Origin: Trichinella spiralis
Lineage: Eukaryota
Length of the DNA: 64,000 nucleotides
Reading direction: 5' to 3'
NCBI RefSeq assembly: GCF_000181795.1
Contig: NW_003526940.1
Location: forward strand, 3,137,293 to 3,201,292
A program made the translations under genes and the position numbers. Every line of letters begins with the position of its first letter. Positions within the stretch are counted from its first letter, which is position 1. Shown here piece after piece: positions 1,401-61,212 of the stretch. The notes under the pieces are model-generated. The model was given only the letters and a program-made list of their open reading frames with translations, ran no database searches and was not told the DNA's origin.

Positions 1401-1806
1401 CAGTGTCCAATGTTCCCATCTGGGAACCTACAACTTTGGAATGCTACTGTTTCACCATTATTATCGAGAATTCATTGCAAATTTGTATATGGTATTCCTA
1501 CTGCTTGCTCAAATTTCCATTGCAGTCGCAAGGTGCAAAACCAAAAATTCATTGAAAAATTACGTAATAAGTCATGCTGACTCAACAAGTAGAAAACTAG
1601 CCAAATCTGAATATTTGTAGATAACGGTAAGTGTTTCTATAGTACACATATAACATATCAATTAAAAGAGCACATCGAGCTGAGTAAAATTTGTTTTAAT
1701 AATTCTGTTTTTTTGTTACGACACTAATTTTGTTCGAAAAAAACTTACACAAATTTAGAAATTTAAGTGTGAATAGCATGTTCCTCCACGGGAACATTGG
1801 ACACTA
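1401..1806. mobile_element. ~400 bp MITE with terminal inverted repeats (possibly piggyBac-like); second copy 4650-5055
   Basis: CAGTGTCCAATGTTCCC at 1401 and GGGAACATTGGACACTA ending at 1806 give a 16-bp perfect inverted repeat, imperfectly extendable to ~27 bp; no transposase inside. Confidence 0.6.
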
Positions 1807-2110
1807 AACGGTTTATATAATATAATATATACGCTTCAAGTTTTAAAAATATTCATAGAAGGCAGTTAGGCTATTATAATTGAACACATATTTCGACAAT
1901 CGTTTGCTGAACGTTATTTATACATTTATATAACGTTCGTTAAATTGCAATTCAATTCATAATCAATTTCAATATAAAAAAATTATCTTCGTATTTTTTA
2001 TTCAAATGACCAACATTTTTACTGACTACAAAAAAATAATTATTGGACAATCAATAACAAAATCCAATAAATGTCAATGATAATAATAATAATAATTAAT
2101 TAATATGAAT

Positions 2111-3235: not shown

Positions 3236-3512
3236 CAGTTTTGTAAAAAAATTAAACCAAAACCAAAAACACATACACAACAACAAAGCTAGAAATGCAA
3301 AAGCAATTTTAGGCGACAAATTTGAATAATAAAAAACAAACAAACAATAGAATTGATTTTATACAGTTTCTGAGACAAACAAAAGCCACAACCACACAAA
3401 AGGAGAAGATGCTTGATTTTATTTTATACTGTATATATTCAATGAATTTCAAAAAAATGAAATTATAACTGTCTTCTTGTTTCAAGTAAGTACGCTGCGA
3501 TCGATCCCTTTT

Positions 3513-4130
3513 TCAAGGAAACAACAAGCTGAAAATTTTTAATGATAAATAGCAGAGGCGGTGAAAAACAGTGGTTTCTTTTTTGAAAAAAATTAACAAA
3601 CAATTACCGGTACGGATAGCCGCGATATTTCAATCGAAACACTGACAGGAGGCAGCTGAATACGATCACCACCAGACCAATTCCGGCATAAGCATAAACT
3701 GAGAAATTTGGAAAAAGATAAAAACAAAACGAAAATAAATAAATAAATCGAATATATTTACGGCGAGTTTTAGAGGATGATGTTTTCGTGTCGGTGGCGT
3801 CGACGAGCAAAATGAATCCCATTGTAATTGCCATATCTACATGTAAAAATTGTTCATTGTAGAAATTCTGCAGAAAATAAATAAAATGCAAATTAATTTA
3901 AAAGAAAGGAAACACATACAAATAAGTGCGACTATGTACGTTTCAACGATAAACTGCATTTGAGTACCTTGAGAAAAAATTGTCTGAAAAGATCCCATCA
4001 ACATATATATGTTTTGTAAGCGTTATAAAAGTGTTACCCACTGTCCAGTTTTAGGAATTATGATAGAAAAATGGAAGAACTTCTGATGTGATTCCACATT
4101 TTGTCCTGACAAGAAAGCAAAGTAATGCAC
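3513..4130 (-). CDS. OST3/OST6-family gene, redundant 3' fragment truncated at gap
   Basis: Duplicate of the 3' exons of the gene at 6735-8435 ([26 protein letters not shown]); indels accumulate toward the contig end. Confidence 0.75.
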
Positions 4131-5354
4131 TAAAAATGGGAGATACCAAAATAGTTTGATCACTTTTCATTAGAAGATGATTATCAAAAAGTTTTCNNNN
4201 NNNNNNCAAAGATTGATAAAACTTAAAAATCTGGATTGATCACTTCCCAAATAACGAATAATTCATTCTGAAGAGTACGTCACCGCTATTAAACGAAAGT
4301 AATCCTAAATGGAATATTTGAACCAATGAAATGAAGAATATTACAACTAATCACAACTGAAGAGTTTGATTCAATGAGCAATTAGATAAGGAAAGCTAAT
4401 AAGACGACGAATTGAAGGTCCAATGAAATAGCGAGTTCAACGACGTTTTCTGTCTGGCATAAGATGAAGAATTGGCAAATTAATTGAATATTTTCTGTCA
4501 TATGTGTTTTGGAATGGAACGCTTTGTAAACTGGCAATTGTATCTAAGATCGTAAAATCAAAGTTTGACAAACAAGCCTGGCCTAAGTCTAAATCAATTG
4601 GTGTGAAATGAGGTGTGTAATAATAACTTTCAAATTTCATTCGACTTGTCAGTGTCCAATGTTCCCATCTGGGAACCTACAACTTTGGAATGCTACTGTT
4701 TCACCATTATTATCGAGAATTCATTGCAAATTTGTATATGGTATTCCTACTGCTTGCTCAAATTTCCATTGCAGTCGCAAGGTGCAAATCCAAAAATTCA
4801 TTGAAAAATTACGTCATAAGTCATGCTGACTCAACAAGTAGAAAACTAGCCAAATCTGAATATTTGTAGATAACGGTAAGTGTTTCTATAGTACACATAT
4901 AACATATCAATTAAAAGAGCACATCGAGCTGAGTAAAATTTGTTTTAATAATTCTGTTTTTTTGTTACGACACTAATTTTGTTCGAAAAAAACTTACACA
5001 AATTTAGAAATTTAAGTGTGAATAGCATGTTCCTCCACGGGAACATTGGACACTAAACGGTTTATATAATATAATATATACGCTTCAAGTTTTAAAAATA
5101 TTCATAGAAGGCAGTTAGGCTATTATAATTGAATACATATTTCAACAATCGTTTGCTGAACGTTATTTATACATTTATATAACGTTCGTTAAATTGCAAT
5201 TCAATTCATAATAAATTTCAATATAAAAAAATTATCTTCGTATTTTTTATTCAAATGACCAACATTTTTACTGACTACAAAAAAAATAATTATTGGACAA
5301 TCAATAACAAAATCGAATAAATGTCAATGATAATAATAATTAATAAATATGAAT

Positions 5355-6455
5355 TCAACGTTTTCCATAATGCCTTCTTTTCCATTTTAGAATTTCTTCG
5401 TCCGATTCCAAGTCGGCAATTTTTCTAGGCTCCTTTGTTAAGCATATTTCACAATGTAAGTGCTGTTTGTCGGCAGTTGGCTGCATTTTGTGTTTCTCTT
5501 TACAATAGCCAACAAATACACCAAGTTCTAATTCTTCGGTACTGAGCAAATAAGAGAAGCTATCACCCAACGAGAACTAATCAAACACAGTTTGCTTTTG
5601 TAAAATTAACATCAATCCAAGAGAAATAAATAAATAAATATATATATATATATATTTACCACTTTAGCTAAAACAATATCCCCCTCTTGAAAACACTCGT
5701 ACATACTGACTTCAGTTTCATTTTTCGCAGAACCGTACACATTTTCTTTCCTTTACAATTTAATAATTACAAAAACAATAAAAAACACATTAAACAAATC
5801 CTTTACCGGATAATGCCTACAAATGGGTAAGGCAAAATATTGTTGTGAACCATCAGTATGGTGCATTTTGCATATTTATTTGCAACACCAGTCACCTGAG
5901 AAGAAGAAAAAGAAAAGAAAATTTTTGAAATGCTAAATTATAAATATATATCTTTGTTTTTTCAATTAATAACCAACCAGTTAACAATTTCTTCTTACCC
6001 GACAAGTGACCACCGCCTGAGGTGACGGTAAAATACTTGTTGAGGAATTTTCACGTACAACTTCAACAACAGCCTTGAAAAATGGAAAACAGAAAATTAT
6101 TTTATCAAAAACTATGATGAATTAAATTTAACAATTAAAGGTGTTTCAAATTTTAATCCAATAAACAACATGAAAAAGAAAAAAAATTGTTTTTTTCACA
6201 ATCATCTTACGCAATCATTCTCTTTTGTCAATTTCAATTGTCCAGCCAATGAAGCGAAATAATAGCCATGAGCCACGTAACAACCATAACCGGAGCGAAT
6301 GTTCTCCTCCTGTTCTTTAAATAATTCTTCTCCTATTCAATTTCCATATTTCAAAACAAATCAACATTATCACATATGCAACAACAATTAACACCTGGAA
6401 TTACAAATTTTCCACTGAATTCTTCAATCAAATCGTCTACTGACTGCATCATCAT
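5355..6455 (-). CDS. EXOSC1: Exosome complex component CSL4/EXOSC1, copy 2
   Basis: Same exon set as 2111-3235; last-exon translation is identical. Confidence 0.9.
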
Positions 6456-6734
6456 CAGTTTTGTAAAAAAAAATTAAACCAAAACCAAAAACACATACAC
6501 AACAACAAAGCTAGAAATGCAAAAGCAATTTTAGGCGACAAATTTGAATAATAAAAAACAAACAAACAATAGAATTGATTTTATACAGTTTCTGAGACAA
6601 ACAAAAGCCACAACGACACAAAAAGAGAAGATGCCTGATTTTATTTTATACTGTATATATTCAATGAATTTCAAAAAAATGAAATTATAACTGTCTTCTT
6701 GTTTCAAGTAAGTACGCTGCGATCGATCCCTTTT

Positions 6735-8435
6735 TCAAGGAAACAACAAGCTGAAAATTTTTAATGATAAATAGCAGAGGCGGTGAAAAATAGTGGTTTC
6801 TTTTTTGAAAAAAATTAACAAACAATTACCGGTACGGATAGCCGCGATATTTCAATCGAAACACTGACAGGAGGCAGCTGAATACGATCACCACCAGACC
6901 AATTCCGGCATAAGCATAAACTGAGAAATTTGGAAAAAGATAAAAACAAAACGAAAATAAATAAATAAATCGAATATATTTACGGCGAGTTTTAGAGGAT
7001 GATGTTTTCGTGTCGGTGGCGTCGACGAGCAAAATGAATCCCATTGTAATTGCCATATCTACATGTAAAAATTGTTCATTGTAGAAATTCTGCAGAAAAT
7101 AAATAAAATGCAAATTAATTTAAAAGAAAGGAAACACATACAAATAAGTGCGACTATGTACGTTTCAACGATAAACTGCATTTGAGTACCTTGAGAAAAA
7201 ATTGTCTGAAAAGATCCCATCAACATATATATGTTTTGTAAGCGTTATAAAAGTGTTTACCCACTGTCCAGTTTTAGGATTATGATAGAAAAATGGAGGA
7301 CTTCTGATGTGATTCCACATTTGTCCTGACAAGAAAGCAAAAGTAATGCACTAAAAATGGAAGAAAACAAAATAAGTTTGATCACTTTTCATCAGAAGAT
7401 GATTATTCAAAAAAATTTTCAAATTACCAAAGCGAGAAAACCCCAAAGATTTCGATTGTACAAAAAGTCCAAACTGCTTCGCTTCATGTACAAAAGTCCA
7501 CAAACCAACATCAAGAGCAAAAACAGAGCAACCGGGCCGGCATAGTTCGGCGGCCGCATCACTGGGATCTTAACAACATCATCGGTAATAATGATCGTGA
7601 TTATTATAATTTTTTTCCAACAAATAAAATTTCAACTCACCACAACGTCAGTTCTTTCGTGTACCCATTTCGCAATCGCTTCGGCTTGTATGCCACTGCT
7701 GTAAATAAATTTCCCCTCTGTCCAAAAAAGAATCCCAAAAAAAAGAAATTTAATACCACAAACTCACCGTTGAAAATCCATCTTGTCTTGTCGTTTCAAA
7801 TTGCCGCGGGGTGGTACATGCAAAATTATCGGTATTGCGCTAATTCCGAGCTGTAACGAACACAACAATAATGGACAAATTATTTCATAATTGCAAAGTG
7901 AAAAAAATTAATTTTTTTTTCCAAACCGTATGAAAAACTTCACCGGCTTCTTCATAGTCTGCTAAAACGAAATACAAACGTTTGGAATTCATATTCGTAA
8001 AACGATATGAACTCGCGACCACTTCGAATTCATCCTGCACAACGCTAAATAGGATATAATCTGAATTTAAAAAAAACAAACAATTCCAAATAAATCACCA
8101 GCATCCAAACACTTACCTGCAAATTCTACATTGTCTATTACTTTGTGATGTCAGCAAAATAATTACTGAATAATTACGAGGTGACGAGCGGACATACTGT
8201 TGGAATTTCGCATTGTTCAACCGAAGCACGGATCTTTTTGCCAACCAATCTTGCATGAACGTAACCTTCTCCTCTAAACTCTATAATTTTCCTTTATTAT
8301 TTTTTTTAAATATATTTTTTCACATTTGAAAAAATATTAAAATACTAGCTGTTCCTTCTTCGTTTTCTGCGGATTGATGAGTGGCAAAACGGTTAAACAC
8401 AACACTGTCGCTGCTAACCAATATGAAGCATTCAT
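6735..8435 (-). CDS. Oligosaccharyltransferase subunit OST3/OST6 (MAGT1/TUSC3 orthologue), multi-exon
   Basis: Signal peptide [34 protein letters not shown] (thioredoxin-like CxxC); [32 protein letters not shown]-terminal [18 protein letters not shown]. Confidence 0.92.
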
Positions 8436-18420: not shown

Positions 18421-19738
18421 AATCTTGTGGCAATATCACTTTTGGATTGGTCACTCAGTGTTTATTACCGAAAACAATAAGTGATGTAGCAGTAAAGAAG
18501 AGTTATTCGACGATGTTAAATATTGCGATGAAAATAAATATGAAAATTGGTGGCATCAATGCAAAATTACTGAAAGATGAAGTGTAAGATATTGAATTCA
18601 AGAATGCGTTTGAAAAAGTTTAAAATGAAAGATTTTTCTTTAGTTTAAATAATTATTTGTATAAAAATAATACATTGGTAATTGGTGTGGATGTGGTTCA
18701 TCCATCTGCTGTAGAGACGTATTTACCATCAGTTGCTGCGGTGCGTATTCATTGCTTTGTTATTCAAAATTATTCGAGAAATATTTTTGATTTCAAGGTT
18801 GTTGGAAACGTGGATGTAACTGTTACAAAATTTAAAGCATCGGTGAAAATCCAATCAGCTAGGCAAGAATTGATCACCGATTTTGTTGATCAGTTTTCTG
18901 AACGAATAATGGAATACTCTGATGTTAATGGTTCAGCACTGAAAAACATTATTGTTTTTCGAGATGGAATATCGAAAGGTCAATTCAAGCAGGTGAAATT
19001 GTGTTCTATCATTAATTAAAGCAAAGTAAGAATTCATTTTTTAAACAGGTTTTGGAAGAAGAATTGCTTGCTCTTCGTCGGGTGTGCAAAAAATTTGCAT
19101 CAAATTACCGGCCGTTAATAACGTTTATTGTGGTTCAAAAGCGACATCATGCTCGATTTGTTTGTTATGATAAAGCTGCAGCACGAGGACGGGGGAAAAA
19201 CATCCCTGCTGGTACTGTTATCGATAGAGTAGTGACATCTCTTGATGAATATGATTTCTTTTTGTGCAGTCATCATGGAATTCAAGTATGACTTTGTGAA
19301 ATGTTTTGAATATTTATTATTATTTTCATTTCAATTGCAGGGAACTAGTACACCGACGCGATATTATGTTCTGTTTGATGAAAGCAACATGGATGTGAAT
19401 GCAATGCAGTTGATCGCATACTATTTATGCCATATATATGGTAGATGTGCTCGTTCTGTCAGTATACCAGCACCGGTATATTTTGCACATTTAGTTTGCG
19501 CCCGTGCTCCTTATCATTTTCTTGCTGCATTGTAAGTTGGATTAATTAACTTATTTAAAAATGAATGAATTATTGAATTTTATTTTTTAGCAATTCTGTT
19601 CAAGTGAAAAGGTTATCTGATGAAAACAGTAACAGTAGTAGTAGTAGTTCCAGCAGTAATTCTGAATCTGTGAAAACAAAATTGGCTAACATAATTGCAC
19701 TGCACAGCAGAGTTGAAAAAATCATGTACTACGCATAA
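18421..19738 (+). pseudogene. Argonaute (AGO clade), 5'-truncated copy: late MID plus PIWI
   Basis: SCGNITFGLVTQC...KINMKIGGIN / VIGVDVVHP / RQELI / IIVFRDGIS / ITFIVVQKRHHAR..GTVID..DFFLCSHHGIQ / GTSTPTRYYVL..CARSVSIPAPVYFAHL / IMYYA*; starts mid-exon against repeat DNA. Confidence 0.92.
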
Positions 19739-21419
19739 CGTGCAGCGACGGCCGATGCTTAATATATTCTAGTGCTTAGTTATTTAGTGCTTATTTAAAA
19801 ACAGTAAATATATTTGTGTATGTGTTTACCTCTAGATCATAGCTTTTCATTCTGCATATTGTTGTGGTAAAAAATAACAAACAATATACATGATGTGATG
19901 AAGAAGGTTCAATATATATGCTATATATTTATGATATTTTATAAATTCATTATACTATTCATAGTGAATTTATAATATTGGGGTGAAGATGTTCGTTTGC
20001 ATGAAAAACCAAATGAGAACGAAACCAAATATTAATATATACATAAGTAAGTGAAGAGTTGTTGGCAAAGATTGAATGTGAAATATTTTGAAACTGGATT
20101 CGAAATTTTCTTTCATGTTTCTGGCATTTAAATTACCTCGCCATAGATGTGCACATTTAGGGCTTCAGTAGGGCTCTTTGAATTGTTTCTGGCTTCCATT
20201 TTACATAAACCGCCAATTACACTTCAAAAGAGCAATGTTTATTAAGAATAATGTCTATTCAAAAGTTCTATTTCTGAAACCACTTGCATCTTCATTTTAC
20301 CTCAATGATAGACTGACTTACAATTTCCAACATGTGCACATTTGGTGAAACATTACTTCCTCTTTCGATCAACACACTGATCAGCTAAGTAAAGCGTAAT
20401 TTTTTTGAGGCTGGTCTCTCTTTAATCGTTGTTAACTTGAAACTGCCGCCCGACTATTTCCGATTGTAATAAACACTGATGTTAAAGCAGCAAAAATTTG
20501 CAAACTATCATCTATCTCTCAGCTTTCAATACCAGCATTCATAAGTAAGAACATGATGTGACACAGAGATACCAAAGCGGCTGATTTTTATTGGCAGCTT
20601 GTTTGCAAAACAACCAGTAGTCAAATGTCCAGTCTCTGATGCTTTACTGCAATTTCGCCCGCTAAACTTTGACCTCATTTTTCTGATTGGTTGTTCGCCG
20701 ATGGCAGTAATTGGCAGTTCAATTAACCTACTTTATTAATTTATTAGATTTTGAAGTAGAATTATTGATCAAAAGTGCATAATCAATGAAATGGCATAAG
20801 TAAATCACCAACTACCGATCAAACCCGGTACATGCTATAAGTGAACGACCAATCACACGGAGGGGGCAGAGTGGCAAAAATGGGAGCCCTCGAAATCAGA
20901 TAACGCTATCTATGAAGCAGCCACTTTTTGTTGAATGTGCGCCATATTTTAATGAAACTTTCAAGAAACAACTACAATCTGATTGTTCAACGCATATTTT
21001 CATTTGGAAAACAGTTAATCTCTGAACTAGATTTTCAAATTGAATAAGAAATTTCATCTTGTACAAAGTGAAACAGTTCTCATGTGAATTAATTTTTATC
21101 AACTATATTGGTTGAATATTCGCACAAAGTAGTGAATAAATAAAGTTACTCTTAATTGGCATTCCTAACGAAAAAGAGTATTTACAACTGAAATTGTACA
21201 TCTGTTCTTTAACATATTGTTCATAGTTAGTAAATCAAAATTTGTTTTAAAATTCTAGTTGTTTAATATTGACGCTTGTTGCCATATATAAAAATTATTA
21301 TGACAATTTTTTAGCCAATTTAATAGTCACAGTTACAATTTGATTACTGTGCTTACTGTAAATCATTGGCGAGTAAACTCTTTATTCGGTTGTTAACAAG
21401 AAAATGATTTTCACTAGCA

Positions 21420-22286
21420 ATGGCTGAACGAAGTAAGTATTGTTGTTTTTTTGTGTAAAAGGTTGAATAATATCGTCAATTGTGGTCTGATTTTTAATCT
21501 GTGAAAAAGCGGTGGCTTAATTGCCAACAATATTTGGCCAAAATCATGGACCGCATCTTATTCCAGCATTTCTTGAACAGTTTGTAATCGGTGAATTACT
21601 TGTAGGCAAAGAAGTGAAATCAATTTCTGATAATCTGTCCCAGTTACGTTTAGTAAGTGTTAGCTAATGTTTTATTTCATTATTTAGTATTGTTATTGTG
21701 GTTGTGGCTATTTTAGAAAGAATTAGTGAAACGTCCTGACTACGGGACTGTTGGCATGCCGATAAAATTAGCTTGCAATTATTTTCCACTGGTAAAACTG
21801 CAGACCGGTGATTTTGTTGTTCACAGATATCACATCCTCATACAACATCCTCGTTTAAATTTGAATAGGTTCGATTTTAATTTGTTGTCAAGTTTTATCA
21901 TAATTTTAATCAGTTTATTTTTTCTATTTTAGTATGGCTTCAAGGGCCATATTTTGGGCATATGTAGTGAAGCGTTTAGATATTTTTGGTGATCCATTTA
22001 AATTAGTATACGATGGGAAGAGTACTTTGTATACAGTTGAAAAATTGCGTTTGAATCAAGTCGCTGAAGAAGCAGTTACGATTCGTTTTAGAAATTTATT
22101 CTTTGGTTTTATAAATTGCAATTTTAAAATATGAATATTTTTATATTTTAAGGATAAATTTTTTTTTCAAAACTGTTCGAGAAAATAAAGAAACAGAAGT
22201 GTCTATATTGATTAAACCCACTGATCTGGCTCGCTTGATTTCCGAAATGCAGAAGCCGTTTCCCTGGATGGAACGGATGAACTTTC
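21420..22286 (+). CDS. Argonaute N-terminal exons (N domain), running into a gap
   Basis: ATG at 21420 followed by GTAAGT donor; KRPDYGTVGMPIKLACNYFPL (AGO N-terminal motif) and LVYDGKSTLYT; ends at the 295-N gap. Confidence 0.85.
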
Positions 22287-22767: not shown

Positions 22768-22783
22768 GGCCCTTTCTAGGGTC
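22768..22783 (+). terminator. Orphan histone 3' stem-loop
   Basis: AACCCAAC-GGCCCT-TTCT-AGGGTC: same 5' flank and 6-bp stem / 4-nt loop as the H2A, H2B and H3 stem-loops. Confidence 0.7.
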
Positions 22784-23850
22784 ATAATTTTGGTCTTATG
22801 GTGCAGATCGTTTTTTGTCTGAATGAACTGCCGCTTTTGAATCTACCCAATTTTAACATATAATTTAAAATAACGATGAAAAAGTTCCGCTAAATTTTGA
22901 GGATGTATCATAGTCACTCTTCTCATTACAGTCATAATTATTGACACTGCCTATATTCACTTTCCTCAAGAAAATCATTCAGGAAGTCTAAGGAACTATC
23001 ACTACCATATCCTGTGAGTGACATTTTTAAATTTTTGCGACATTTGACATGAAATAGAGGAAACTTTGCATAAAATGGTGTAAATGATACTAAACTTAGA
23101 TCAAACTTTGCATACAATAATGTAAATGATAGTAAAAGTATGGCACATTTTCCATAAAAAGTTAACAAAAAAACCACTAATAATAACTGTTCACAATCAA
23201 GTGGAAAACATGTAGACAAAAAAAAAGATGGTGACTCACCAGTATGAGAGAAAATTAGATAAATGAGAACGATATATGTAAGGCAACGGTTCAACACCTT
23301 TCGCAGACATGACCGCGCAAACTGAAAAAATATTCTGTGATCATTTCTAGGAAGATATGAAAAACAACAGCTGTCATCATTTAGAAATTCTGCTAAAGCA
23401 GAAAGTTTTCGGGGTTTTCTGGACCCCACACCACCTCTAAAGTTTAATAAAAGTTAAAAAATAAAATATAAATAATAGTATAAAAATTAATGAGAGATGG
23501 TAATATGCTAATTTTAGCACTTTTTTTAAATTCTGATGTAATCGCAAGTGATTGAAGATGGCTGATTAGTAAATTGTACTTTTGGCAGTTAAATTACAGT
23601 AAAATATTTTCACTTTTTTTACTTCCTGTTTTCCAACGTTTTATACCATTTTTAACTTTTAACATTAATGATTCAATCACCATGTGCTGCACGTCATCCT
23701 GCTACGTTTACAAAATAAATTCTATTCTCATTTTAACGAAATGAACAACGTCATGTGATAAATATAAAATGAAAAATAATTTAAAATAAACTATGTAACA
23801 AGATACTTTAATAAAATGGCACTATAAAAGTACATGATACAAAAAATTTT

Positions 23851-23866
23851 GGCCCTAAAAAGGACC
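23851..23866 (-). terminator. Histone H2A 3' stem-loop
   Basis: Minus strand AACCCAAC-GGTCCT-TTTT-AGGGCC, 26 nt after the stop. Confidence 0.92.
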
Positions 23867-23892: not shown

Positions 23893-24288
23893 CTACGGTG
23901 ATGATTTAGTCTCTTTTGACAGATCTTCAGCTTTCCTTGGAAAAAGATTTGCATTGATGTTCGGAAGAACACCACCTTGAGCAATAGTTACACCCCGGAG
24001 GAACTCGCTCAACTCTTCATCATTTCGTATTGCCAACTGTAGATGCCGTGGAGTGATGCGAGTCTTCTTGTTATCACGGGCGGCGTTTCCAGCCAATTCG
24101 AGTACTTCAGCGGTCAAGTATTCCATGACAGCGGCAAGATAGACAGGACCTCCAGCACCAATACGCTCAGCGTAATTTCCCTTTTTCAAAAGACGATGAA
24201 TGCGACCAACAGGGAACTGGAGTCCAGCTCGACTAGATCGAGTTTTTGCTTTTCCTTTAACTTTTCCACCTTTCACGCGACCAGACAT
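23893..24288 (-). CDS. H2A: Histone H2A, replication-dependent type, divergent
   Basis: Intronless 131-aa [12 protein letters not shown]...[13 protein letters not shown]...[19 protein letters not shown]...[12 protein letters not shown]; stem-loop present. Confidence 0.97.
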
Positions 24289-24552
24289 CTTCAATTGACA
24301 AACACCAGGCAAACTAAAATCTTTCAACAATGAACGTTTCCCCTGAAATTCCGTTTAAATACTTTGGAAATCAAGAATTAGGTCAAAGTGCAAATTGAAA
24401 CAATTTTCGCTAAATGCTATTGGCTATCGCGCATCAATTTAAAATCTGGTTACTGAGAAACGCTATTGGCTAGTTTCCCCTTGGTTTCAGTATAAAAATT
24501 CTCATTTTAGAAATTTCATTTTCTTTTTGACGTTTCAGCGGTGTGGAATAAC
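24289..24552. promoter_or_regulatory. Bidirectional H2A/H2B promoter
   Basis: 264-bp head-to-head spacer with two GCTATTGGCTA (CCAAT-box) motifs near 24416 and 24462, and TATAAAA at 24491. Confidence 0.75.
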
Positions 24553-24912
24553 ATGACTCCGAAAGGTGTAAAGAAAGCAGGTCAACTCCAGAAAGTGGCC
24601 AAGTCTGGTGATCGCAGACGACGTCGTTTGAGGAAAGAATCGTTCGCTGGTTACATCTACAAGGTCTTGAAGCAAGTTCATGCTGATACTGGCATCAGCA
24701 GCAGGGCGATGTCAATCATGAACAGTTTTGTGAATGACATTTTTGATCGCCTTGCCGCTGAGGCGAGTCGTCTTGCCCAATACAATCAACGCCACACGAT
24801 CACTTCACGGGAAATTCAAACGGCTGTCCGTTTACTTTTGCCTGGTGAACTTTGCAAACATGCGGTCAGCGAAGGGACCAAAGCTGTTAACAAGTACAAC
24901 AGTGGAAGGTAA
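24553..24912 (+). CDS. H2B: Histone H2B, replication-dependent type, divergent
   Basis: Intronless 119-aa ORF ...[38 protein letters not shown]...[27 protein letters not shown]. Confidence 0.97.
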
Positions 24913-24953: not shown

Positions 24954-24969
24954 GGTCCTTTTCAGGACC
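24954..24969 (+). terminator. Histone H2B 3' stem-loop
   Basis: AACCCAAC-GGTCCT-TTTC-AGGACC-ACA. Confidence 0.95.
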
Positions 24970-25238
24970 ACATTATTTTTATTCCCATCGATGAAATTCA
25001 TAAATAAAAACTAATACTTTTGTTAAANNNNNNNNNNCATTTGAAATTATTGTTAAAAACTGTGTAAGCTGAAAGGGGCAAGCGATAAACCTCCATCGCA
25101 AATCGTTTCCCGCCTTTTTCCCCAGCCTTATCATTTTTGAAAACTCAGTTCACCACTTACAGTTAAAGGTCAATTGCAGTTATGTATATAAAGGAGTGAA
25201 CATTTATTTTGCTCTCAGTTGAGAGTTTTCGAGTAAAA

Positions 25239-25649
25239 ATGGCGCGTACTAAGCAAACCGCTCGCAAAAGTACTGGTGGAAAAGCCCCACGTAAGCAGTT
25301 GGCCACTAAAGCGGCTCGGATGATTGCCACCAATGCTGATAGAGTAAAGAAACTACGTCGTTATCGTCCAGGGACAGTGGCTCTTCGTGAAATTCGGCGT
25401 TATCAAAAAAGTACAGAACTGTTGATCAGAAAGCTGCCATTCCAGCGTTTGGTTCGGGAAGTTGCTCAAGATTACAAAACTGAGTTGCGATTCCAATCGT
25501 CAGCAGTTTTCGCTTTACAAGAAGCGGCTGAAGCTTACCTGGTTGGCCTGTTCGAAGACACAAACTTGTGTGCTATTCACGCAAAACGTGTCACCATTAT
25601 GCCAAAGGATGTTCAGTTGGCTCGTCGTATACGGGGTGAACGCGCCTAA
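25239..25649 (+). CDS. H3: Histone H3 variant (K27M, G34R, remodelled residues 27-39)
   Basis: Intronless 136-codon ORF with canonical [26 protein letters not shown] start and histone fold; TATATAAA about 50 nt upstream; stem-loop downstream. Confidence 0.96.
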
Positions 25650-25681
25650 CTTTGTTTTGCCTATTTTGTTCATAATCCAAC

Positions 25682-25697
25682 GGTCCTTTTCAGGACC
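25682..25697 (+). terminator. Histone H3 3' stem-loop
   Basis: ATCCAAC-GGTCCT-TTTC-AGGACC-AC. Confidence 0.95.
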
Positions 25698-28351: not shown

Positions 28352-30430
28352 TGTGACGGCCACTGTGAAATTGTACCTGCATATCACGCCCACATTTTTG
28401 TAGGACATCGACAGTAGGGGACGCCTGATCGAAAGCCGGTGATCGTGAGCGGTGCGGCTGTTATTCCGTCATTCTTATTTTGTCATTGTTGTTTTCGCTG
28501 TTCTGTGCTTTGTCTAATAAACTCTTAACCACTCGCGATGGTGTGAAATCACGTAGCATCGACGAACTCTACAAATGGCGAGCGCGGCAGGATCGATGGG
28601 ACGGAATGGATTAGCCCGTCAGAGATACTTACCATGTCATTGAACGTGGAGACCTGGTTCGAAAACTTGGAAAAGTACTTCTGTGCCTCCCGTATAGCCC
28701 CGGAGAGACGAGCTTCCCTTTTTCAGTATCATACTGATGAGGAGGTGCCGGGCGTAATGAGGGCTATGCACGTCCAGGTAACGGACGATTACGATGGACT
28801 GAAATCAGCCCTGTTGGAAGCCTTCGGTGTGCGCACCGGTTAAGAGAGGTTCTCCGCTGAGTTTTTCCGGCGTTAACAGCAACGGGGTGAAAGCGTGCGG
28901 ATTTATGCTGGTCACTCACGCTGGCTGTTCACGAAGGCGTTTACCGGACTGAGTGGTACGCCGCCAAGACCCTGCTGCAACAATTTAAAGCGGGACGTAT
29001 AGTTTAACGGATGCGATCAAAGTTACAGCCCGGGAAGAGCGCATTTGGACAGGGCTCACCGTGCTCAAGGAGAGCGTCTCTTCAGTCAAAGCAGACGCTG
29101 ACCAGGAAGACCTGCAGCCAGCGGTCGACGTCACAGAGGCAATAGCTGCCCCGGTAACGACGCGAAAGGAAGTTGGAGAAGAACTGGCGGAAGTGGCGCG
29201 GCAGTTGAAGCAGCTGCTGATGACGGACATAACTGCGGCTGCAAAGAGAGCGACTCCCCAGCAGCGACGCAGGCAGGAGAAGAAAGACCGGAGAACGTGT
29301 TGGACATGCGGAAGAACGGGCCACATTTGTAGGGTCTGCCAAGCTTCCCCCCTCCCTGACGACCGAACGTCCAGGGGAAGCAGTACTGCCTGAACCTTTA
29401 ACGCCGTTGACACACGATGCCCTGAGATTGAAATACTGACTGTGGAAGGCTCTGTGGGAGATGTGCGATACAGCGTGCTCATGGACACTGGGTCCGCGGT
29501 AACCCTAGCGGACGGAAAATTTATGCGGGACTCGGAGACCCTGTGGGACGTCATTCGCACCGGAGACGCCAAGCCAGGGCGGTGCTCCCCAACGCGGATC
29601 GCCCACTACCAGCGAACGCAGGTGGAATCTCTCCTGCTCGAAATGTTGAGGCGAGACGTTGTGGAGCCGTCGAGCAGCCCCTGGGCGTGGCCAATTTGTT
29701 GGTCGAGAGGTACATCGCGGTCAAGGTCGCTCATTTGAAGCGTCAGTGGTGATGGAGATGTGCCTCTTGTTCTGCATCAGGAAGACACGATTCTCTGCAT
29801 ACCACCCGCAAGGGAATGGACAAGCGGAGAGGTTCATGTGAACGCTCCTCGACATGCTGTCCATCATGTTCGATGGGAACCCGCACCAGTGGGACGACAT
29901 GCAGCCGTTTGTCATGCTGGCGTACAACAGCAACGTTCACGAGAGCACGGGGATGACGCATGCTATCGCCATGTATGGCGGAGAGCTGCGGCTACCGTTG
30001 GACGTGCACATTGGGAACCCGCAGGAGCAAGAAACCCAAAGGATGCCGGAATACATGCGGAAAACCTGAGAGCGCATCGACCGTGTGCACGAGCTCCTGA
30101 AGGACCACCTGTAAACGCAGCAGCGTCGACAGAAGTGCCTGTACGACCGCTATGCAAATGAGACGCATTTCCGCCAGAACGACTTTGTGTGGTTTGCCTT
30201 GCCAAGAAGACGGAAGCTCGACCTCGGCTGGGAAGAGCCCTACATGATAATGTACGTAATGGGGTCACAAACATTCCGGGTGCGTCACCAGGAGCAAAAG
30301 TGCCGCTCACTGGTGGAACACTCTGACCGGATGAAGCGGTACTACACCAGAGAGTTCGCTGGAGAGCGGTCTTTCCGAGGCGGCACCACCAGGCAGCAGG
30401 AACATCACCCGTTTGCGGCGGAACGTACGT
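28352..30430 (+). mobile_element. Deleted Ty3/Gypsy LTR retrotransposon (5' LTR, PBS, gag, protease, integrase remnants)
   Basis: LTR TGT...ACA 28352-28573 with AATAAA; PBS TGGCGAGCGCGGCAGGA at 28576; gag CCHC knuckle CWTCGRTGHICRVC; protease LMDTGSAVT; VVEPSSSPWA; integrase SAYHPQGNGQAERF, LAYNSNVHESTG; RT/RNase H and 3' LTR missing. Confidence 0.9.
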
Positions 30431-32432
30431 CATATTGTTCAACTAAATCGTCAAAACTACATGGAGATGTACCAATGTCGTTTAAGATCACCAGACCGCT
30501 GGTACCTACTTGGTATTGCATGCCAAAACTCAGTGAGTGCTAACTGTGAACAGCATTCTGGATAGAATTCCAGAATAGGATTCTGTTCTACCATTTTGTA
30601 AATGTTCCATCTCGATAGCTGCTTTTATTATGAAAATCATTGGTATAGATTTCACGTGTTTTCTTTATTGAATTTTAAGCCTGCCAATTTTTTTCACTTC
30701 TGCTATTAATCACCAACTTCTACCAGGTCAAAAATGCACGGCTATTGAAAATTTGATGATCATGTCAAACATATCAAACACATAATAGAGCTGCTATGTA
30801 ATACTTTGGTACTAGGATCGATTTCCTCCAACGAACTGCGCCTACTTTTTCTAATCTAAATTTCATTGGTTGTCAGTCTGATCCGATTAGGTTGCCTTGA
30901 GAATGGACTGCTTAACTATAAATTGCCGAAGCTAACAGGACACGTCGCTGACAGTCACTATGCAAATTCATAAGCAAACACCATGTTTCAATTCAATGAA
31001 ATTTAGTTGCGTGCATCAGAGCAGCAACCAATGACATTTGCTGCGAAAAGTAGGCAGAGTTCATTGGGGGAAATCAGGTCTATCCTAATATTTTGCCTCA
31101 TGGTGGAACAAAATAAATTCCTGAATTTTTCAAATCTGACAATTTTATTGAAATTCAACTTCAATTTTACAAGTCTGTAGTATATCATTATGTTGATGCA
31201 TTTAGCATCGTGCCAATTGCTGTTATTATAATAATCTTTGATTTAGATTTCACATCTTTCCTTGATTAACTTCTAAATTAGTCAATTACAAATAAACTAT
31301 GTATATACTTTTGAACATGAACATTTTGCGTTCTTGTTCAACCATTGTTGAAAGTCAAAATTTTTTCCTCTGGCTATTTTAAATATTAAAATTGCAAATT
31401 TGGTCACTTTGTTATCGTCAATTCTAATCAATTTCTTGTTTTTGAACATCTGCCTCAGCACTGACGTTGGCGTTATTTGTGAATAAATTAAAGTTGTTGA
31501 CGCTACATTTAGGATTTTCCAGACAAATTCTGAATTTTACCCAGAAGTGTTGCTAAGCTTTAGTGCGTGAAGCAATTGCTGGAAACCTGAATCACATCTG
31601 AACAACTTGCAAAACGCAAATGCGACAGTTGTAAATTTGCTTAGCTTATCACTTCCGGAAGTATGATTTTATTCTAAAATTTATTCTTTCACTGATCACT
31701 AAGCTGTTCTTGTACTTTGTGCATTATAACATTCTAATAAAATTGATTGCTTATCGCAAGAACCCTTTGAGGCATAACGTCACATATTTAATAATCTGTT
31801 TTCAATTATTCCTATGAAATTATTATCGACTTCAAGATAATAGTAATATTTAACAACACACAATTATATATGAAAAAATGAAATAATAGCATAAGCAATA
31901 ATAGATCATCAGGTTGATAAAAACTAGTTTGTATTGTAGACAGTATTTGTTCATCATATACATCGCAATGAATTCTTTACTTTATAGAATTTGAATGATT
32001 GTTCTCATGACATTTCAAAAAAAGACGACAGTTTCTGGCAAAGCAAGTCGAAGAAATAAGATATACAACTGAGAACTGTGGGATCAGAAGAATATTAAAG
32101 ATATAAAGTGACGGGGTCAGACAAACCAAAATACCGGTAGCGGAAAATTTTTTCTAAAATCAAAATATCATATATCAATACATATACTCTTATTATATAT
32201 TTTTATAGAGGTATGTGTATTTTATTCATATTTTGAAGTAAGCAGTTGCTAGCCAATGATTCCAAATGCTGTAGAACAACACGGAAGTTGCACGTTTTTA
32301 TTGTAAATTACAAATTTTTTCATAAAACCATAAGCATAAGCTAAGAAAGCGTGTCAAACGACTTCTATAATTCGAGTATGTTAATGAGATTTAAAATAAT
32401 GATAATAGTAATGAATAAATTGTTGCATTTAG

Positions 32433-34490
32433 TATGCTTCGACAGACGCTCTTACTCGAATTTTAAATTGTGTTGAAATGGTCAAGAAATCAAATTTCAA
32501 TAGTGATCCATTCTTGAAAAATTTTGGTTTTGCAATTAAAGGCGAACCAATGATTTTTAGTGGATGAGTTTTGCCTGCGCCTAAGTTGGAATATGGTGAA
32601 GGAAATGGAGGACGTGTAAATAATAATTGTTGAAATCACTACTTTTGGAAAAATATTTGTTTCACAATTGGTTTTACATTTCTAGCAAATTATTCTTACA
32701 CCAAAAGATGGAGCATGGAATTCGAATGAATTTAAATTTTTTGGATCTGCTCATTGTGAATCATTCGCATTTGTATCGTTTCTACCACCAAATAAAGTAT
32801 CAATGTTACAGTGAGTATTGAAAAATGTGTAAATAAGTCAAATCAGCTTTGTTGTTTGCATGCCTCATTTTTAGGGAATTTTGTCTGCAAATTGTCAAAA
32901 CATGTCGTAGTACAGGAATTCAAATGCCAGACAATCCAAAAAGCTTTGAACAAGCGGGAAGAAATGATAGTGTAGAAATGATATTCAAACGTATTGCAGG
33001 CAAATGTGACAGAGATGGCATGAAATGTGATTTGGTGTTTGTTGCGTTGTTTTCATCCGAACAATACGGTAATAATTATTTTGTTGTTTTATGATGAAAT
33101 TTATATTATTAATGTTGAACGTATTTTTACCATTTTAAGGTCAAGTGAAATCTTGTGGCAATATCACTTTTGGATTGGTCACTCAGTGTTTATTACCGAA
33201 AACAATAAGTGATGTAGCTATAAAGAAGAGTTATTCGACGATGTTAAATATTGCGATGAAAATAAGTATGAAAATTGGTGGCATCAATGCAAAATTACTG
33301 AAAGATGAAGTGTAAGATATTGAATTCAAGAATGCGTTTGAAAAAGTTTAAAATGAAAGATTTTTCTTTAGTTTAAATAATTATTTGTATAAAAATAATA
33401 CATTGGTAATTGGTGTGGATGTGGTTCATCCATCTGCTGTAGAGACGTATTTACCATCAGTTGCTGCGGTGCGTATTCATTGCTTTGTTATTCAAAATTA
33501 TTCGAGAAATATTTTTGATTTCAAGGTTGTTGGAAACGGGGATGTAACTGTTACAAAATTTAAAGCATCGGTGAAAATCCAATCAGCTAGGCAAGAATTG
33601 ATCACTGATTTTGTTGATCAGTTTTCTGAACGAATAATGGAATACTCTGATGTTAATGGTTCAGCACTGAAAAACATTATTGTTTTTCGAGATGGAATAT
33701 CGAAAGGTCAATTCAAGCAGGTGAAATTGTGTTCTATCATTAATTAAAGCAAAGTAAGAATTCATTTTTTAAACAGGTTTTGGAAGAAGAATTGCTTGCT
33801 CTTCGTCGGGTGTGCAAAAAATTTGCATCAAATTACCGGCCGTTAATAACGTTTATTGTGGTTCAAAAGCGACATCATGCTCGATTTGTTTGTTATGATA
33901 AAGCTGCAGCACGAGGACGGGGGAAAAACATCCCTGCTGGTACTGTTATCGATAGAGTAGTGACATCTCTTGATGAATATGATTTCTTTTTGTGCAGTCA
34001 TCATGGAATTCAAGTATGACTTTGTGAAATGTTTTGAATATTTATTATTATTTTCATTTCAATTGCAGGGAACTAGTACACCGACGCGATATTATGTTCT
34101 GTTTGATGAAAGCAACATGGATGTGAATGCAATGCAGTTGATCGCATACTATTTATGCCATATATATGGTAGATGTGCTCGTTCTGTCAGTATACCAGCA
34201 CCGGTACATTTTGCACATTTAGTTTGCGCCTGTGCTCATTATCATTTTCTTGCTGCATTGTAAGTTTGATTAAATAACATATTCAAAAATGAATGAATTA
34301 TTGAATTTTATTTTTTAGCAATTCTGTTCAAGTGAAAAGGTTATCTGATGAAAACAGTAACAGTAGTAGTAGTAGTAGTAGTTGTAGTAGTAGTAGTAGT
34401 TCCAGCAGTAATTCTAAATCTGTGAAAACAAAATTGACTAACATAATTGCACTGCACAGCAGAGTTGAAAAAATCATGTACTACGCATAA
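32433..34490 (+). pseudogene. Argonaute (AGO clade), L2-MID-PIWI exons with a nonsense codon
   Basis: NFNSDPFLKNFGFAI...SG*VLPAPKLEYG (TGA 32565-32567), QY/GQVK..LVTQC, DVVH/RQE/RDG/AHL tetrad, IMYYA*; 33148-35554 duplicates 18421-20799. Confidence 0.92.
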
Positions 34491-36399
34491 CGTGCAGCGA
34501 CGACCGATGCTTAATATATTCTAGTGCTTAGTTATTTAGTGCTTATTTAAAAACAGTAAATACATTTGTGTATGTGTTTACCTCTAGATCATAGCTTTTC
34601 ATTCTGCATATTGTTGTGGTAAAAAATAACAAACAATATACATGATGTGATGAAGAAGGTTCAATATATATGCTATATATTTATGATATTTTATAAATTC
34701 ATTATACTATTCATAGTGAATTTATAATATTGGGGTGAAGATGTTCGTTTGCATGAAAAACCAAATGAGAACGAAACCAAATATTAATATATACATAAGT
34801 AAGTGAAGAGTTGTTGGCAAAGATTGAATGTGAAATATTTTGAAACTGGATTCGAAATTTTCTTTCATGTTTCTGGCATTTAAATTACCTCGCCATAGAT
34901 GTGCACATTTAGGGCTTCAGTAGGGCTCTTTGAATTGTTTCTGGCTTCCATTTTACATAAACCGCCAATTACACTTCAAAAGAGCAATGTTTATTAAGAA
35001 TAATGTCTATTCAAAAGTTCTATTTCTGAAACCACTTGCATCTTCATTTTACCTCAATGATAGACTGACTTACAATTTCCAACATGTGCACATTTGGTGA
35101 AACATTACTTCCTCTTTCGATCAACACACTGATCGGCTAAGTAAAGCGTAATTTTTTTTTTGAGGCTGGTCTCTCTTTAATCGTTGTTAACTTGAAACTG
35201 CCGCCCGACTATTTCCGATTGTAATAAACACTGATGTTAAAGCAGCAAAAATTTGCAAACTATCATCTATCTCTCAGCTTTCAATACCAGCATTCATAAG
35301 TAAGAACATGATGTGACACAGAGATACCAAAGCGGCTGATTTTTATTGGCAGCTTGTTTGCAAAACAACCAGTAGTCAAATGTCCAGTCTCTGATGCTTT
35401 ACTGCAATTTCGCCCGCTAAACTTTGACCTCATTTTTCTGATTGGTTGTTCGCCGATGGCAGTAATTGGCAGTTCAATTAACCTACTTTATTAATTTATT
35501 AGATTTTGAAGTAGAATTATTGATCAGAATTGCATAATCAATGAAATGGCATAAATAAGGTTTAGTCTGAACTCATCCGCAATAATTCGACCCATTTTTG
35601 TGATTGGCTGGTTGCTGATTGGTTGTCGTTGTGTTGTGCGTTAAATGGCTAATGACTTCTGCTATTTTATTAGCTAACTATTTTGATAAGTGATTGGGTG
35701 AATAACTGTGCTATTTGATTAGCTATTCAGCTGTGATCTAGGATTGGGTGATTGTTGTTTATCAAGTCATGACCAAATATGGGTGCATCACCATTAAAAT
35801 ACTTTATATGGACATAAAAAAGCATTTACTATTTTTTAAAGAGAAAGCATTTAGCTATAACCTGGAAATGTGTATATTTGTTTTTAGACTTTGCAAACGA
35901 TGCTTTTAAATAGCTTTTGCGTTTTACATTTACTGTTACTGATTTACATTCTTGTATGTTTGCTTTTGCACAACTATGCTGATCAACAGACTGTTTTCGC
36001 AGAAACTTTTCTGCTATTCGTTATAAGCGCTTCAGAACTTAGCAAATGTATAGTACAGAAATTTCCATTTTACAACAACAAGAAAATCTGAACTTTATTA
36101 CAATATATACCATGGGCAAGATGGGCAATACAACTTTAACGTGGAATAAGTCCATTTCTAAATTTGTAGACACTGTTCCACGGCAACCAACTTATCGTTA
36201 TGTTGAAAAAATGGAGGTTCGGTCCCACTTGGGCACAATTTTGTTCCCATTCGGTCCCACTTTTCATTTATTGGTCGTTGTCCTCGCTATTTTATTAGTC
36301 CGTAATGTCTTTGTAGTAGTTGGTTTTCCTTGTCTAATCAGTCGATGGTTGAAATCCATCCACTGTGATTATCAGTAATATTTTTTAATTTCAAATAAT

Positions 36400-39585: not shown

Positions 39586-42500
39586 TGTTCAATCCAACTG
39601 TGTTCAGAACAGCTGAATTTCACTAACGGATCTCTGGTCCTCTCTCAGGCTTATCAGCGTTAATTAAGTTCGGGAACAACAACACACGGAAACTAAGATT
39701 TATTCGGGAAGAATCGCACAACACACACACAAACACAAGGTCACACACTTCCGCTCGCGTTCACGCTCGCCGATTACTCGCAGATTACGTCACCACCACC
39801 AACACACCGGTTACGGTAGCAGATTGGGATCTTCAGGCTCAAACCGAAGAAGTTTTCAACACTCTCCCCCCCCCTCGGTGATGGACCGCAGTTCATCACC
39901 GAACCGATGCTGGCTCAAGAAGAATGAGCGATCTGCTCAGCCGGATGAGAAGGCCTCGGGTAGTCCGTACTTTCACTGACCTCGTGACCCCATCGCTTCC
40001 CGTCAACGGCTCGATGATCACGCCTAGTTTCCAACAATTCCGTGGAACGCCTTCTTCCACTAGGAACACTAGGTCTCCCTTTTCCGGCTGCCGCCCGAAC
40101 TTCGTCCATTTCCCTCGTGAGGTGAGAGTCACGAGATACTCTTCCAGCCATCGATTCCACAGATGTTTCATCAGCAGCTGCTGGTGCCGCCAACGCTTAC
40201 GCAGCTGGATGCGTTCGTCGGGGCCGATGCGGACGCAGCGGGAATCGGGAGCGATGCCAATTCTCGTCCGATGAGGAAGTGCGCCGGTGTTAACGGGGCG
40301 CAGTCATGGGGGTCCTCGCTCAACAAGGTGAGTGGCCGGTCATTGATCCGAGCCTCCAACTCACACAGCACGGTGTGCAACTCCCAGCTGCGGAGTAACG
40401 CTTTCCCCAAGACCTTCCTCAGAGCGTTTTTCATCGATCTTACAAGCCGCTCCCAATAGCCACCGCACCAGGGAGCTCGGTCGGTGCTATACTTCCACTC
40501 GATCTGCCGCATCGCCAACTTTTCCCGGATCTTACCAGCTGAATTTCCGCGAAGAAGGTCTCGCATAAACGAATCAGCTTGCTTAAACGTCCGGAAATTG
40601 TCAGTGTGAATCACACTGGGTCTCCCGCGTCTGGCGATGAATCGGCGGAGAGCGGCCAAGAAACTAATCGTGGTCATGTCAAATACCACCTCCAAGTGCA
40701 CCGCTCGTGTGACCATGCACGTGAACAGGCAGATGTACGCCTTCTGCGCAGGCTGATGTTCATCTTTCACGTACAACGGTCCAGCAAAATCCAATCCCAC
40801 TCTGTTGAATGGGAATGACGGTATCACTCTTTCAGGCGGAAGGTCGCTCATCAGTGGACAAAATGGACGAGCATCATGCTTCCGGCAGATGATGCAAGCT
40901 CTGATGCATCTCTTGACTGCTTGCCGGCCCCGAACTACCCAAAAGCGACGCCGCAAGGCTGCCAAGGTTTGGTTCAGTCCAGCGTGCAATTCTGATTCAT
41001 GAGTTCGTCGCACAAATGGCTCAACAACCGGGCCGTTGCGTGGGAGAAGCAAAGGATGACGGTGGCACCAGGGCAGCGCCGTCCTTGACAGTCTTCCTCC
41101 CACTCGCAAAAGGCCTTCCGTGTCCACGAATGGAGACAAAGCCGCAAGGGGGTCCCCAGCTCGCACAGGGATGGGCCCCGAGGCAGTCTTCGAAACCGGA
41201 AACGCCTCCGCTTGAACTGCTCTCACCCACCGCTTTTCGGCGTCTTGCAATTCTAGCAAGGACAGTTGAGCTCTGATTTTCCGTTATCCTGCGTGGGTTC
41301 TCGCATTCGCGAGGAACCGACAGCAATATGCCGTGACCCTGACGAGGCGTTCCATCGTTCCATATCGAGACGGGTCGATGATCGCCAAGAGACCGGGCTC
41401 TTTCAGGCTGGCGCAAAGCGTGACGACCCTTTTCCTCTCAGGGGACACGAGACGAGTCTCCTCCGGCGAGAGCGCCATAGTCAGGCGCGGCCACTGCTCA
41501 TTAGGTTCCTTCAGCCAGGCCGGACCATTCCACCAGAGTTTGTCCTCACGGAGGGTGTCCAAGGCGCAGCCGCGGCTGAGTTTATCAGCCGGATTGTCCG
41601 CGGTGGGACAATGCCGCCACTGAGAAGGCTCAGTCCGGCTGAGGATCTCCTGAACGCGGTTCGCCACGAAAGGTTTCCACCTTCGTGGGTCGCCTCGGAT
41701 CCAACTGAGGACAATAGTACTGTCGCTCCAACAGGTGGATCGGTTGAAAGGAAGGCCTAATTCCCGTTCCACGTACTCTTTGAGGCGCGCCACGTGGAGT
41801 GCAGCCATCAATTCGAGCCGTGGGAGGCTCAGTCGCCTGACCGGAGCGACGCGGATCTTGGCGAGGCAGAATCTCACCTCCTTGGCTCCGTCCATGGACT
41901 CCGTCATCAGGTATGCCACGGCGCCAAACGCTGTTTCCGAGGCGTCGCCAAAAACGTGCAGCTCAGAGCGGCGAACCTGATCTTTAGGACTGACCATCAA
42001 CGCGCGTGGAACTCTGACGCTGGCCAGAGTCTCCAGTTCATCAGCGACGTCGGTCCTGATGAGCGATTTCTCCGAAGCACTGTCGAGAAGGCAATTGACC
42101 AACCTCTTCTTCCCGTTCTCACCGTAGGCCATCGCTTGGACGACAGGAAGGAGGACCCCGGGAGCCCGAACAGTCGAGGAAAAGTGAACCCCGACGGGAG
42201 CGAGTTCAGTCGCGGCTCTGTCAGAAGCCGCATCTTCTGCTTCCAAATCCTGGGCAGGCGCCGTTGTTGGGTTTTTCTCCTTGACAGCTGCATCCGGTTG
42301 CGCCGCGGGTCTTGCATTTCTTGAAGCTGCTGGCCGCCTGGTTCGTCTGCGGTTCTGACGACGGTGGGGGTTCTGCAAGGCAAGCAGAGGGTGCTGACCT
42401 GGTCGGTCAGGATTCTGCTGGCAGCTACCTCTACGGTGACCTTTTCGCAGACATCCAAAACACAACCCATGCTTCCGGACACATTGCCATAGTTCCGGCC

Positions 42501-43894
42501 CGGAGAGTTCGACGAATCGCGGGCAACTCTCAACAGGATAGATTCCGCAGCACACCACGCAGTTTCCGACTGGATCCACTTGTATGGTGGCCGTCATGAA
42601 ACGCTCTCCCTGCTCAGCCCTCCGTTCTGGTTTCCGAGCGGGCATCTTCCTTGCCGAGCCCTTGATCTGAGATTGGTTCAGCAAGAAGGAGAGGAACACC
42701 GATGAGGTAATTTTCTCATTCGTCAGTTCTTGTACGAATGCCCTCCAGGCTTCCAAGGTGTCTGGCGGCAGCTTCTTCTTGATTATCGGAAGGAGAGCAT
42801 GGAATCCGCTCAAGTTTGCGTCCACATCCTTCCCCAGAGCTCTCAATTCGAGGAAGTGGCGATTCAAGTCATCGAGGAGCCTCGTCAGGTCGGCTGCTCC
42901 GTCATCGGAGCACTCCTTCAAACTGACCACCTTCAACACGTGACTCTCCACCACCTCGGGCACTCGATGGAATCGATTGTGGAGCGTCTGAACGACCTCA
43001 GGGTAATTCTCCGCGCAGACCGTGATTCCTTCAATGGCCTTCAACGCTGCGCCGGACAGACATGACCGCAAATGAAGAAACTTGGTGATGGCACCAAGGT
43101 CCTCCCGTCGATCAATGCTCACCTCGAACTGAGCCCAGAATGACTTAAACTCCAGGATGTTACCATCAAACTTTGGCAGTGGCACCGGTTTCAGCTTTCC
43201 CAACTGCGACTTCGACCCTGATTTTTCGGTCAACGCAGATGTCGCCATGGGCTCTTTGCTCTCCTCCTTCTCTTTCAAGAATGTGTCGGCCCGGGTGCGT
43301 GTTGTAAACACTTCCTTGCATAACTCGCGCCATTCATTAAGGACAGCTTCCAGAGACTCTCCGTCGGGAAGTACGTCTTCCAATGTGACTTGAGCTCAGT
43401 GCGCTTCCGCATACTGTGCATCCAAGGCACGCAGGGCATTCCTAACCGCTAACTCAGAGGAGTCTGTCTCGAGCTGATCCAGCACTTGTTGAATGGTCTC
43501 CCGTAGACGCTTCTGTTCAATCTGTTGGCGCCTCTTAACTGTTTCAATCTTCATCTCGTGAAGCAAGATCAAAAATTCTCAGATTCCGGCCTTCCCGGCT
43601 CGTGGCACCAAAATATATTGCTCAATCCAACTGTGTTCAGAACAGCTGAATTTCACTAACGGATCACTGGTCCTCTCTCAGGCTTATCAGCGTTAATTAA
43701 GTTCGGGAACAACAACACACGGAAACTAAGATTTATTCGGGAAGAATCGCACAACACACACACAAACACAAGGTCACACACTTCCGCTCGCGTTCACGCT
43801 CGCCGATTACTCGCAGATTACGTCACCACCACCAACACACCGATTACGGTAGCAGATTGGGATCTTCAGGCTCAAACCGAGGAAGTTTTCAACA
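39586..43894 (-). mobile_element. BEL/Pao LTR retrotransposon, both LTRs intact, RT deleted
   Basis: 276-bp LTRs 39586-39861 and 43619-43894 (4 mismatches seen), TSD TATGT, PBS TGGTGCCACGAGCCGGGA, PPT GAGGGGGGGGGAGAG; gag (LPKFDGN..F..FW), protease LLDSAS, Pao RNase H LHVFGDAS...LPRLEL, integrase H..H..C..C, DFAGP, DN, APWCGGYWE. Confidence 0.97.

Positions 43895-61168: not shown

Positions 61169-61212
<44 letters not shown>

Follow-up and report, generated by a model that had tools for sequence, protein, structure and literature searches.

A natural histone H3 variant with methionine at residue 27 and arginine at residue 34 in Trichinella spiralis

The window analyzed here, i.e., the whole 64-kb stretch of Trichinella spiralis DNA, contains a histone unit in which divergent H2A and H2B genes are followed by a variant histone H3 gene. 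The intact H2A ORF (23893–24288, reverse strand) and the intact H2B ORF (24553–24912, forward strand), both supported by protein comparison, lie on either side of a shared promoter (24419–24497) with two reverse motifs and a box that we take to be CCAAT and TATA-like elements, respectively. Each gene ends in a histone 3′ stem-loop detected with Rfam and by folding (23851–23866, reverse strand, for H2A; 24954–24969, forward strand, for H2B). The H2A has an unusual C-terminal tail with arginine at the K118 position, and the H2B a short, arginine-rich N-terminal tail; comparison of this H2B with the named T. spiralis protein P0124 gave three differing positions and one extra C-terminal residue, and an exact look-up returned no identical match. 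An H4 ORF of at least 90 amino acids was not seen within the 64-kb window. Between H2B and H3 lies a gap of 10 Ns. A TATA-like box (25185–25192, forward strand) precedes the H3 gene, an uninterrupted and intronless ORF of 136 codons plus stop (25239–25649, forward strand). The H3 stem-loop (25682–25697, forward strand) has a 6-bp stem and a 4-nt loop (fold z −3.6) and matches the Rfam Histone3 family with 26.6 bits (E 4e-4), a score below the gathering score of 34. Codon 27 of the H3 gene is ATG (25320–25322), encoding methionine instead of lysine (K27M), and codon 34 is AGA (25341–25343), encoding arginine instead of glycine (G34R). The intronless full-length ORF, the 3′ stem-loop and the adjoining H2A and H2B genes point to a replication-dependent H3 gene; residues 87–90 read S87-A88-V89-F90, a motif that on a stem-loop gene presumably places it outside the H3.3 type.

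Duplications and ORFs of retroelements are abundant in the window. The histone unit lies between two Argonaute-like segments with 98% identity (18421–20803 and 33149–35558; Piwi domain, E 5e-22), and the stretch 21910–22286, judged by its resemblance, is a candidate for the N-terminal exon of an Argonaute gene. ORFs for retrotransposon-like gag, protease and integrase, which we likewise assume from resemblance, occur at 39899–43395 (reverse strand) and 28547–30540. What we take to be Nup98-96-like nucleoporin exons extend over 55352–63416 (reverse strand), a region that also holds a long Gln/Cys-coding triplet repeat near 60905–61285. A 3-kb tandem duplication (1123–4196 and 4371–7420) shows 98% identity. 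A fourth, weaker histone-like stem-loop at 22768–22785 (fold z −1.4, no Rfam match) has the same upstream bases but is not preceded by a histone ORF.

Codons 27 and 34 were checked in independent sequence. At least half of the words of the H3 stretch were found in 14 of the 24 runs listed, 13 from one sample and one from another. A contig of run X1 spans all 861 bases of the H3 stretch with four other letters, and a contig of run X3 spans 25130–25575, where 1 of 446 letters differs from the window. No contig differed at codons 27 and 34 among the rows listed (106 weaker rows exist besides), with one of the two samples possibly being the source of the window itself. M27 and R34 are independently present in five distinct named T. 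spiralis proteins (seven accessions). Contigs from two samples thus match the M27/R34 gene and the named proteins agree, so that sequencing error is rejected and the Met codon is confirmed. This bears out an earlier sequence-only reading of the locus, which had proposed an intact H3 gene with both substitutions, a TATA box and a stem-loop, and had suspected an H3 that would be unmethylatable at K27.

Compared with the H3 of Trichinella patagoniensis (P0125), which has K27, the window protein carries the changes K27M, S28I, P30T, S31N, G33D, G34R, P38L and H39R, all within a rewritten stretch of 13 residues (27–39, encoded at 25320–25358, forward strand). The same reading had described residues 1–26 as canonical, the fold as little changed and the changes as concentrated around K27–K36. 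All three points hold: residues 1–26 are identical in the two proteins, the fold differs at three positions (D81E, L90F, I124V), and 8 of the 11 changes fall into residues 27–39 (8/13, against 3/122 elsewhere). R26, A29, V35, K36, Y41, G44, R49, R52 and Y54 are kept, and a single base separates each of the eight changed codons from one for the canonical residue. In a scan over any window of the whole protein, 0 of 20,000 random placements reached the observed clustering (p about 5e-5), and permuting residues 1–40 only gave p 4e-4 (0.016 with a 20-residue window); this null assumes equal constraint per residue and rejects even decay, not local relaxation. Ordinary pseudogene decay is rejected by the same test: the changes are clustered rather than evenly scattered, and the ORF is unbroken.

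The nearest named protein (T. spiralis, 97% identical to the window H3) belongs to a 90% cluster of 13 members, comprising five distinct T. spiralis H3s (seven accessions) that all carry M27 and R34, one T. patagoniensis H3 with K27, two H2Bs and five fragments lacking the tail. The MIATNA tail occurs in 7 of 345 fetched proteins, of which the named ones are from T. spiralis; all seven have M27 and none has Lys27, which refutes a lone K27M mutant copy. The gene model KRY36453.1 contains H2B–H3 twice in tandem with a third H3 end in between. The variant H3s form two sub-types, the window type with K37, L38, R39 and F90 and the type of the named proteins with R37, P38, H39 and L90. Six changes are common to both, P38L and H39R occur only in the window type, and K37R only in the other, in which seven of nine changes lie in the clustered stretch. 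Since the changes fall on three branches, the stretch 27–39 was altered repeatedly, and one mutational burst is rejected. Of the 18 in-ORF differences listed for other H3 contigs relative to the window, 14 are synonymous, indicating constraint on the remainder of the protein, and 4 restore the canonical residue.

Contig depth in run X3 was 105–107 for the variant versus 10.7–13.1 for other histone contigs, a ratio of 8–10, and in the low-coverage run X1 it was 6 versus 3, figures that are uncalibrated for copy number; short database contigs may also be redundant. The depths support an estimate of roughly 8–10 copies for an amplified H2A–H2B–H3 unit. On this estimate, if correct, the variant outnumbers every other H3 gene of at least 85% likeness. 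The sequence-only reading was right about the intact gene but missed the multicopy unit and its two sub-types. Runs X15 and X16, which we guess to be RNA, contain other H3 contigs, the likeness class of the variant being represented by one 36-base piece of low depth. Of the runs listed, none recorded as RNA contains the stretch, and neither result is evidence on expression.

With regard to other Trichinella species, protein searches gave no second species with the tail among the best 120 matches of each search (in one, the best 120 of 7941). A search with the fused gene model gave none above 80% identity among the best 120 of 2302 matches, in which tandem H3 models of other animals dominate. 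At its start, the T. patagoniensis gene model P0125 reads the end of an upstream H2B out of frame, and this part aligns to the window H2B region with a score of 97 versus 22 in other frames; the H2B–H3 arrangement is therefore shared by T. patagoniensis and T. spiralis. V74 and Y78 are also common to its H3 and the variant. On the basis of this arrangement and these two residues, the probable source of the variant unit is an ordinary K27 H2B–H3 pair. A contig from organism B over 25269–25459 differs from the window by 11 letters. Five of them are among the differences listed and comprise three synonymous ones, P30 and H39; the other six equal in number the remaining canonical tail residues, as would be expected of a closely related K27 gene with hardly any changes outside the stretch 27–39. 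In organism A, the closest H3 paralogue (about 92% alike, promoter included) has a 2-base gap at codon 3–4 in run X3 (window positions 25239–25260), which is consistent with the loose end of a contig from X16; this paralogue is probably a frameshifted gene.

Natural Met27 in H3 is not unique to Trichinella. A pattern scan of metagenomes gave 21 loci, namely 10 in-frame H3 genes with M27 (L002, L008, L011–L016, L018 and L020; proteins P0148, P0153, P0191 and P0192), one doubtful and 10 unrelated ones; none of the 21 is from Trichinella, and the same pattern in the viral_contigs set gave 0 loci. The metagenome proteins share Met27 with the window gene, yet none has its tail and no tandem unit was seen. 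IBR and SWIB protein neighbors suggest that some of their contigs are giant-virus-like, and others may be of protist origin. In three related contigs (L008, L018, L020), the M27 H3 gene contains an intron and is probably from a protist. At L015:3001–3027 (reverse strand), an H3-like frame has Met at both the K9 and the K27 positions, and at L011:914–2104 a 397-aa protein joins a K27M H3 in frame with a SAM domain. In the literature searched, which covered few subscription papers, no published description of a T. spiralis K27M/G34R H3 was found; a multicopy H3 gene combining the two in an animal genome therefore appears to be new.

By residue number, the stretch 27–39 lies in the published footprints of both PRC2 and SETD2. 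The PRC2 contact region extends from R26 to K37 with contacts at R26, A29/P30, V35 and K36, where P30 forms half of a hydrophobic contact and G33/G34 are probably a hinge without PRC2 contact (PMC7725500). The SETD2 region covers A29–R42, and its tunnel fits only G33-G34 (PMC4973290). For inhibition in trans, the arginine at −1 and the methionine are critical and the +1 position is tolerant (PMC6513997; PMC4853476); H3K27me3 is still lowered by an H3 in which EZHIP sequence takes the place of residues 24–41 (PMC6513997). Work in Caenorhabditis elegans reports that about 5% of K27M H3.3 suffices for an effect, that inhibition is most sensitive to residues 26–54, and that K27M action is conserved across species (PMC11621828). 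The same source describes G33E and G34E as intragenic K27M suppressors, singles out only G34E as weakly restoring H3K27me3, states that G34E failed to restore the mark in human cells, and notes that gliomas carry either K27M or G34 mutations but not both (PMC11621828). K27M also disturbs the worm germ line (PMC6555832). The window protein has Arg at −1 to Met27, as in K27M-type inhibitors of PRC2, and Arg34 together with a retained K36, as in the G34R type. Since R26, M27, A29, V35 and K36 are retained, poisoning of PRC2 by the variant is plausible; for poisoning in trans, the retained and the lost contacts point both ways, and we consider the evidence balanced. The description of K27M and G34R as an oncohistone pair, also part of the sequence-only reading, stands insofar as both are present, but they account for only two of the eight changes, and a G34 change is reported to blunt K27M.

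As to the putative target in T. spiralis, SUZ12 is stated to be present (10.1101/2022.04.07.487461). Clustering with C. elegans scored MES-6 as present and MES-2 as absent, and Romanomermis culicivorax, related to T. spiralis, has a mes-2 match of 1e-45 (PMC3890508). PRC2 has been lost in the nematode Pristionchus (PMC11075575). A literature search combining Trichinella with enhancer of zeste and PRC2 found nothing.

The reading that we favor, at somewhat less than even confidence, is that the locus encodes a young, amplified and mark-free H3 that is expressed and reduces the H3K27me3 mark in cis and, to a weak degree, in trans. An ordinary K27 H2B–H3 pair would have given rise to the variant unit, which was then amplified to its presumed copy number. 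The variant would be transcribed as a stem-loop mRNA, likely in a restricted stage in which H3K27me3 is lowered, and its near-normal fold would allow incorporation into nucleosomes. If so, these nucleosomes would with certainty lack K27 methylation and acetylation as well as S28 phosphorylation in cis, K4, K9, K14, K18 and K23 would stay available, and D33-R34 is predicted to block K36 methylation by SETD2/NSD-type enzymes in cis. In addition, R26-M27 may enter the E(z) active site and damp PRC2 in trans. This effect would be weaker than that of the tumor mutant because the P30, G33 and G34 changes would act as built-in attenuators, making a dominant poison tolerable. The metagenome K27M H3s, unlike the window gene, keep P30 in 10/10 and G33-G34 in 8/10 cases, which counts against this reading. 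A bolder version, which we regard as doubtful, is that T. spiralis has domesticated an oncohistone, i.e., that an amplified, germline-encoded K27M H3, tuned at suppressor positions, would serve as its own stage-specific PRC2 damper and as a histone-borne equivalent of EZHIP, and may outnumber normal H3 genes.

Alternatively, the unit could be a silent or nearly neutral young array, produced by tandem duplication among the many repeats of its region, hardly expressed and without a function, with the clustering reflecting relaxed constraint or past selection that neutralized a harmful K27M. The restriction of the tail to T. spiralis proteins among the matches listed and the duplications and retroelements in the window would suit such an array, as would the apparently frameshifted nearest paralogue of the same organism, which points to birth-and-death turnover. 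An expressed K27M gene in 8–10 copies would also be expected to be costly, judging from the worm studies (PMC11621828, PMC6555832). Against this, all three ORFs, their promoters and their stem-loops are intact, the first 26 residues are unchanged with few differences elsewhere, and separate branches changed in the same 13 residues, whereas neutral decay would scatter changes. We consider a silent array possible, if rather unlikely.

The protein might instead be made and act in cis only, the flank changes having abolished PRC2 binding so that its nucleosomes are merely blind to K27, S28 and K36 marks, an explanation that we judge unlikely. Plant sperm and callus H3 variants are similarly mark-blind. 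The loss of P30, G33 and G34 fits such a role, and M27, being one base from Lys, needs no special selection. The listing of G33E as a suppressor is also in its favor, with weak restoration of H3K27me3 singled out by the source for G34E only (PMC11621828). Conversely, the H3–EZHIP chimera works with its flanks wholly replaced, the +1 position is tolerant (PMC6513997), and G33/G34 are probably hinge rather than contact residues (PMC7725500). Moreover, both sub-types keep R26, A29, V35 and K36.

Trichinella lives intracellularly, and several of its species besides T. spiralis also form nurse cells. That the histone would pass into the infected muscle cell and there damp the PRC2 of the host while the nurse cell forms, an idea otherwise backed only by the cross-species conservation of K27M action (PMC11621828), is highly improbable, given that the ORF begins with a normal H3 tail without a leader, that the gene is part of a normal histone unit alongside H2A and H2B and has a stem-loop, and that the tail was not found in other Trichinella species among the matches listed.

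Even in a nematode, K27M acts as a dominant poison when it makes up about 5% of H3, and in tumors it does not occur together with G34 mutations (PMC11621828). A multicopy animal gene that retains the two substitutions represents a natural experiment on how a tail may be detoxified or tuned, and on whether animals outside placental mammals possess a PRC2 damper of their own. The natural variant protein is directly testable in existing worm and cell assays.

Among known systems, Arabidopsis H3.10 and H3.15 are natural H3 variants that escape K27 methylation via tail divergence; they are not known to use Met at 27, and their cell-type-specific expression has been shown. The T. spiralis variant is likewise a tail-diverged natural H3 but uses Met27. 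With the K27M oncohistone (PMC4853476, PMC11621828, PMC6555832), it has in common a full-length H3 with R26-M27, A29, V35, K36 and an intact fold. It differs in being germline-encoded and multicopy, whereas the tumor mutation is somatic and heterozygous, and in carrying seven further changes in residues 28–39, two of them at C. elegans suppressor positions, where the tumor protein is canonical. With the H3.3 G34R oncohistone, it shares Arg34, the retained K36 and a predicted cis block of K36 methyltransferases (PMC4973290), while adding M27 and D33 and sitting on a stem-loop gene. EZHIP resembles it as an endogenous, lineage-restricted and duplicated carrier of an R-M motif with flanks unlike H3 (PMC6513997; 10.64898/2025.12.12.693809). 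In contrast, EZHIP is a disordered non-histone protein of placental mammals, outside which the cited account reports no homologues (10.64898/2025.12.12.693809), with proven inhibition and germline expression. The window protein is a histone with AARMI rather than the VRMR peptide, so that the likeness to EZHIP is one of how the two may work and not of family membership.
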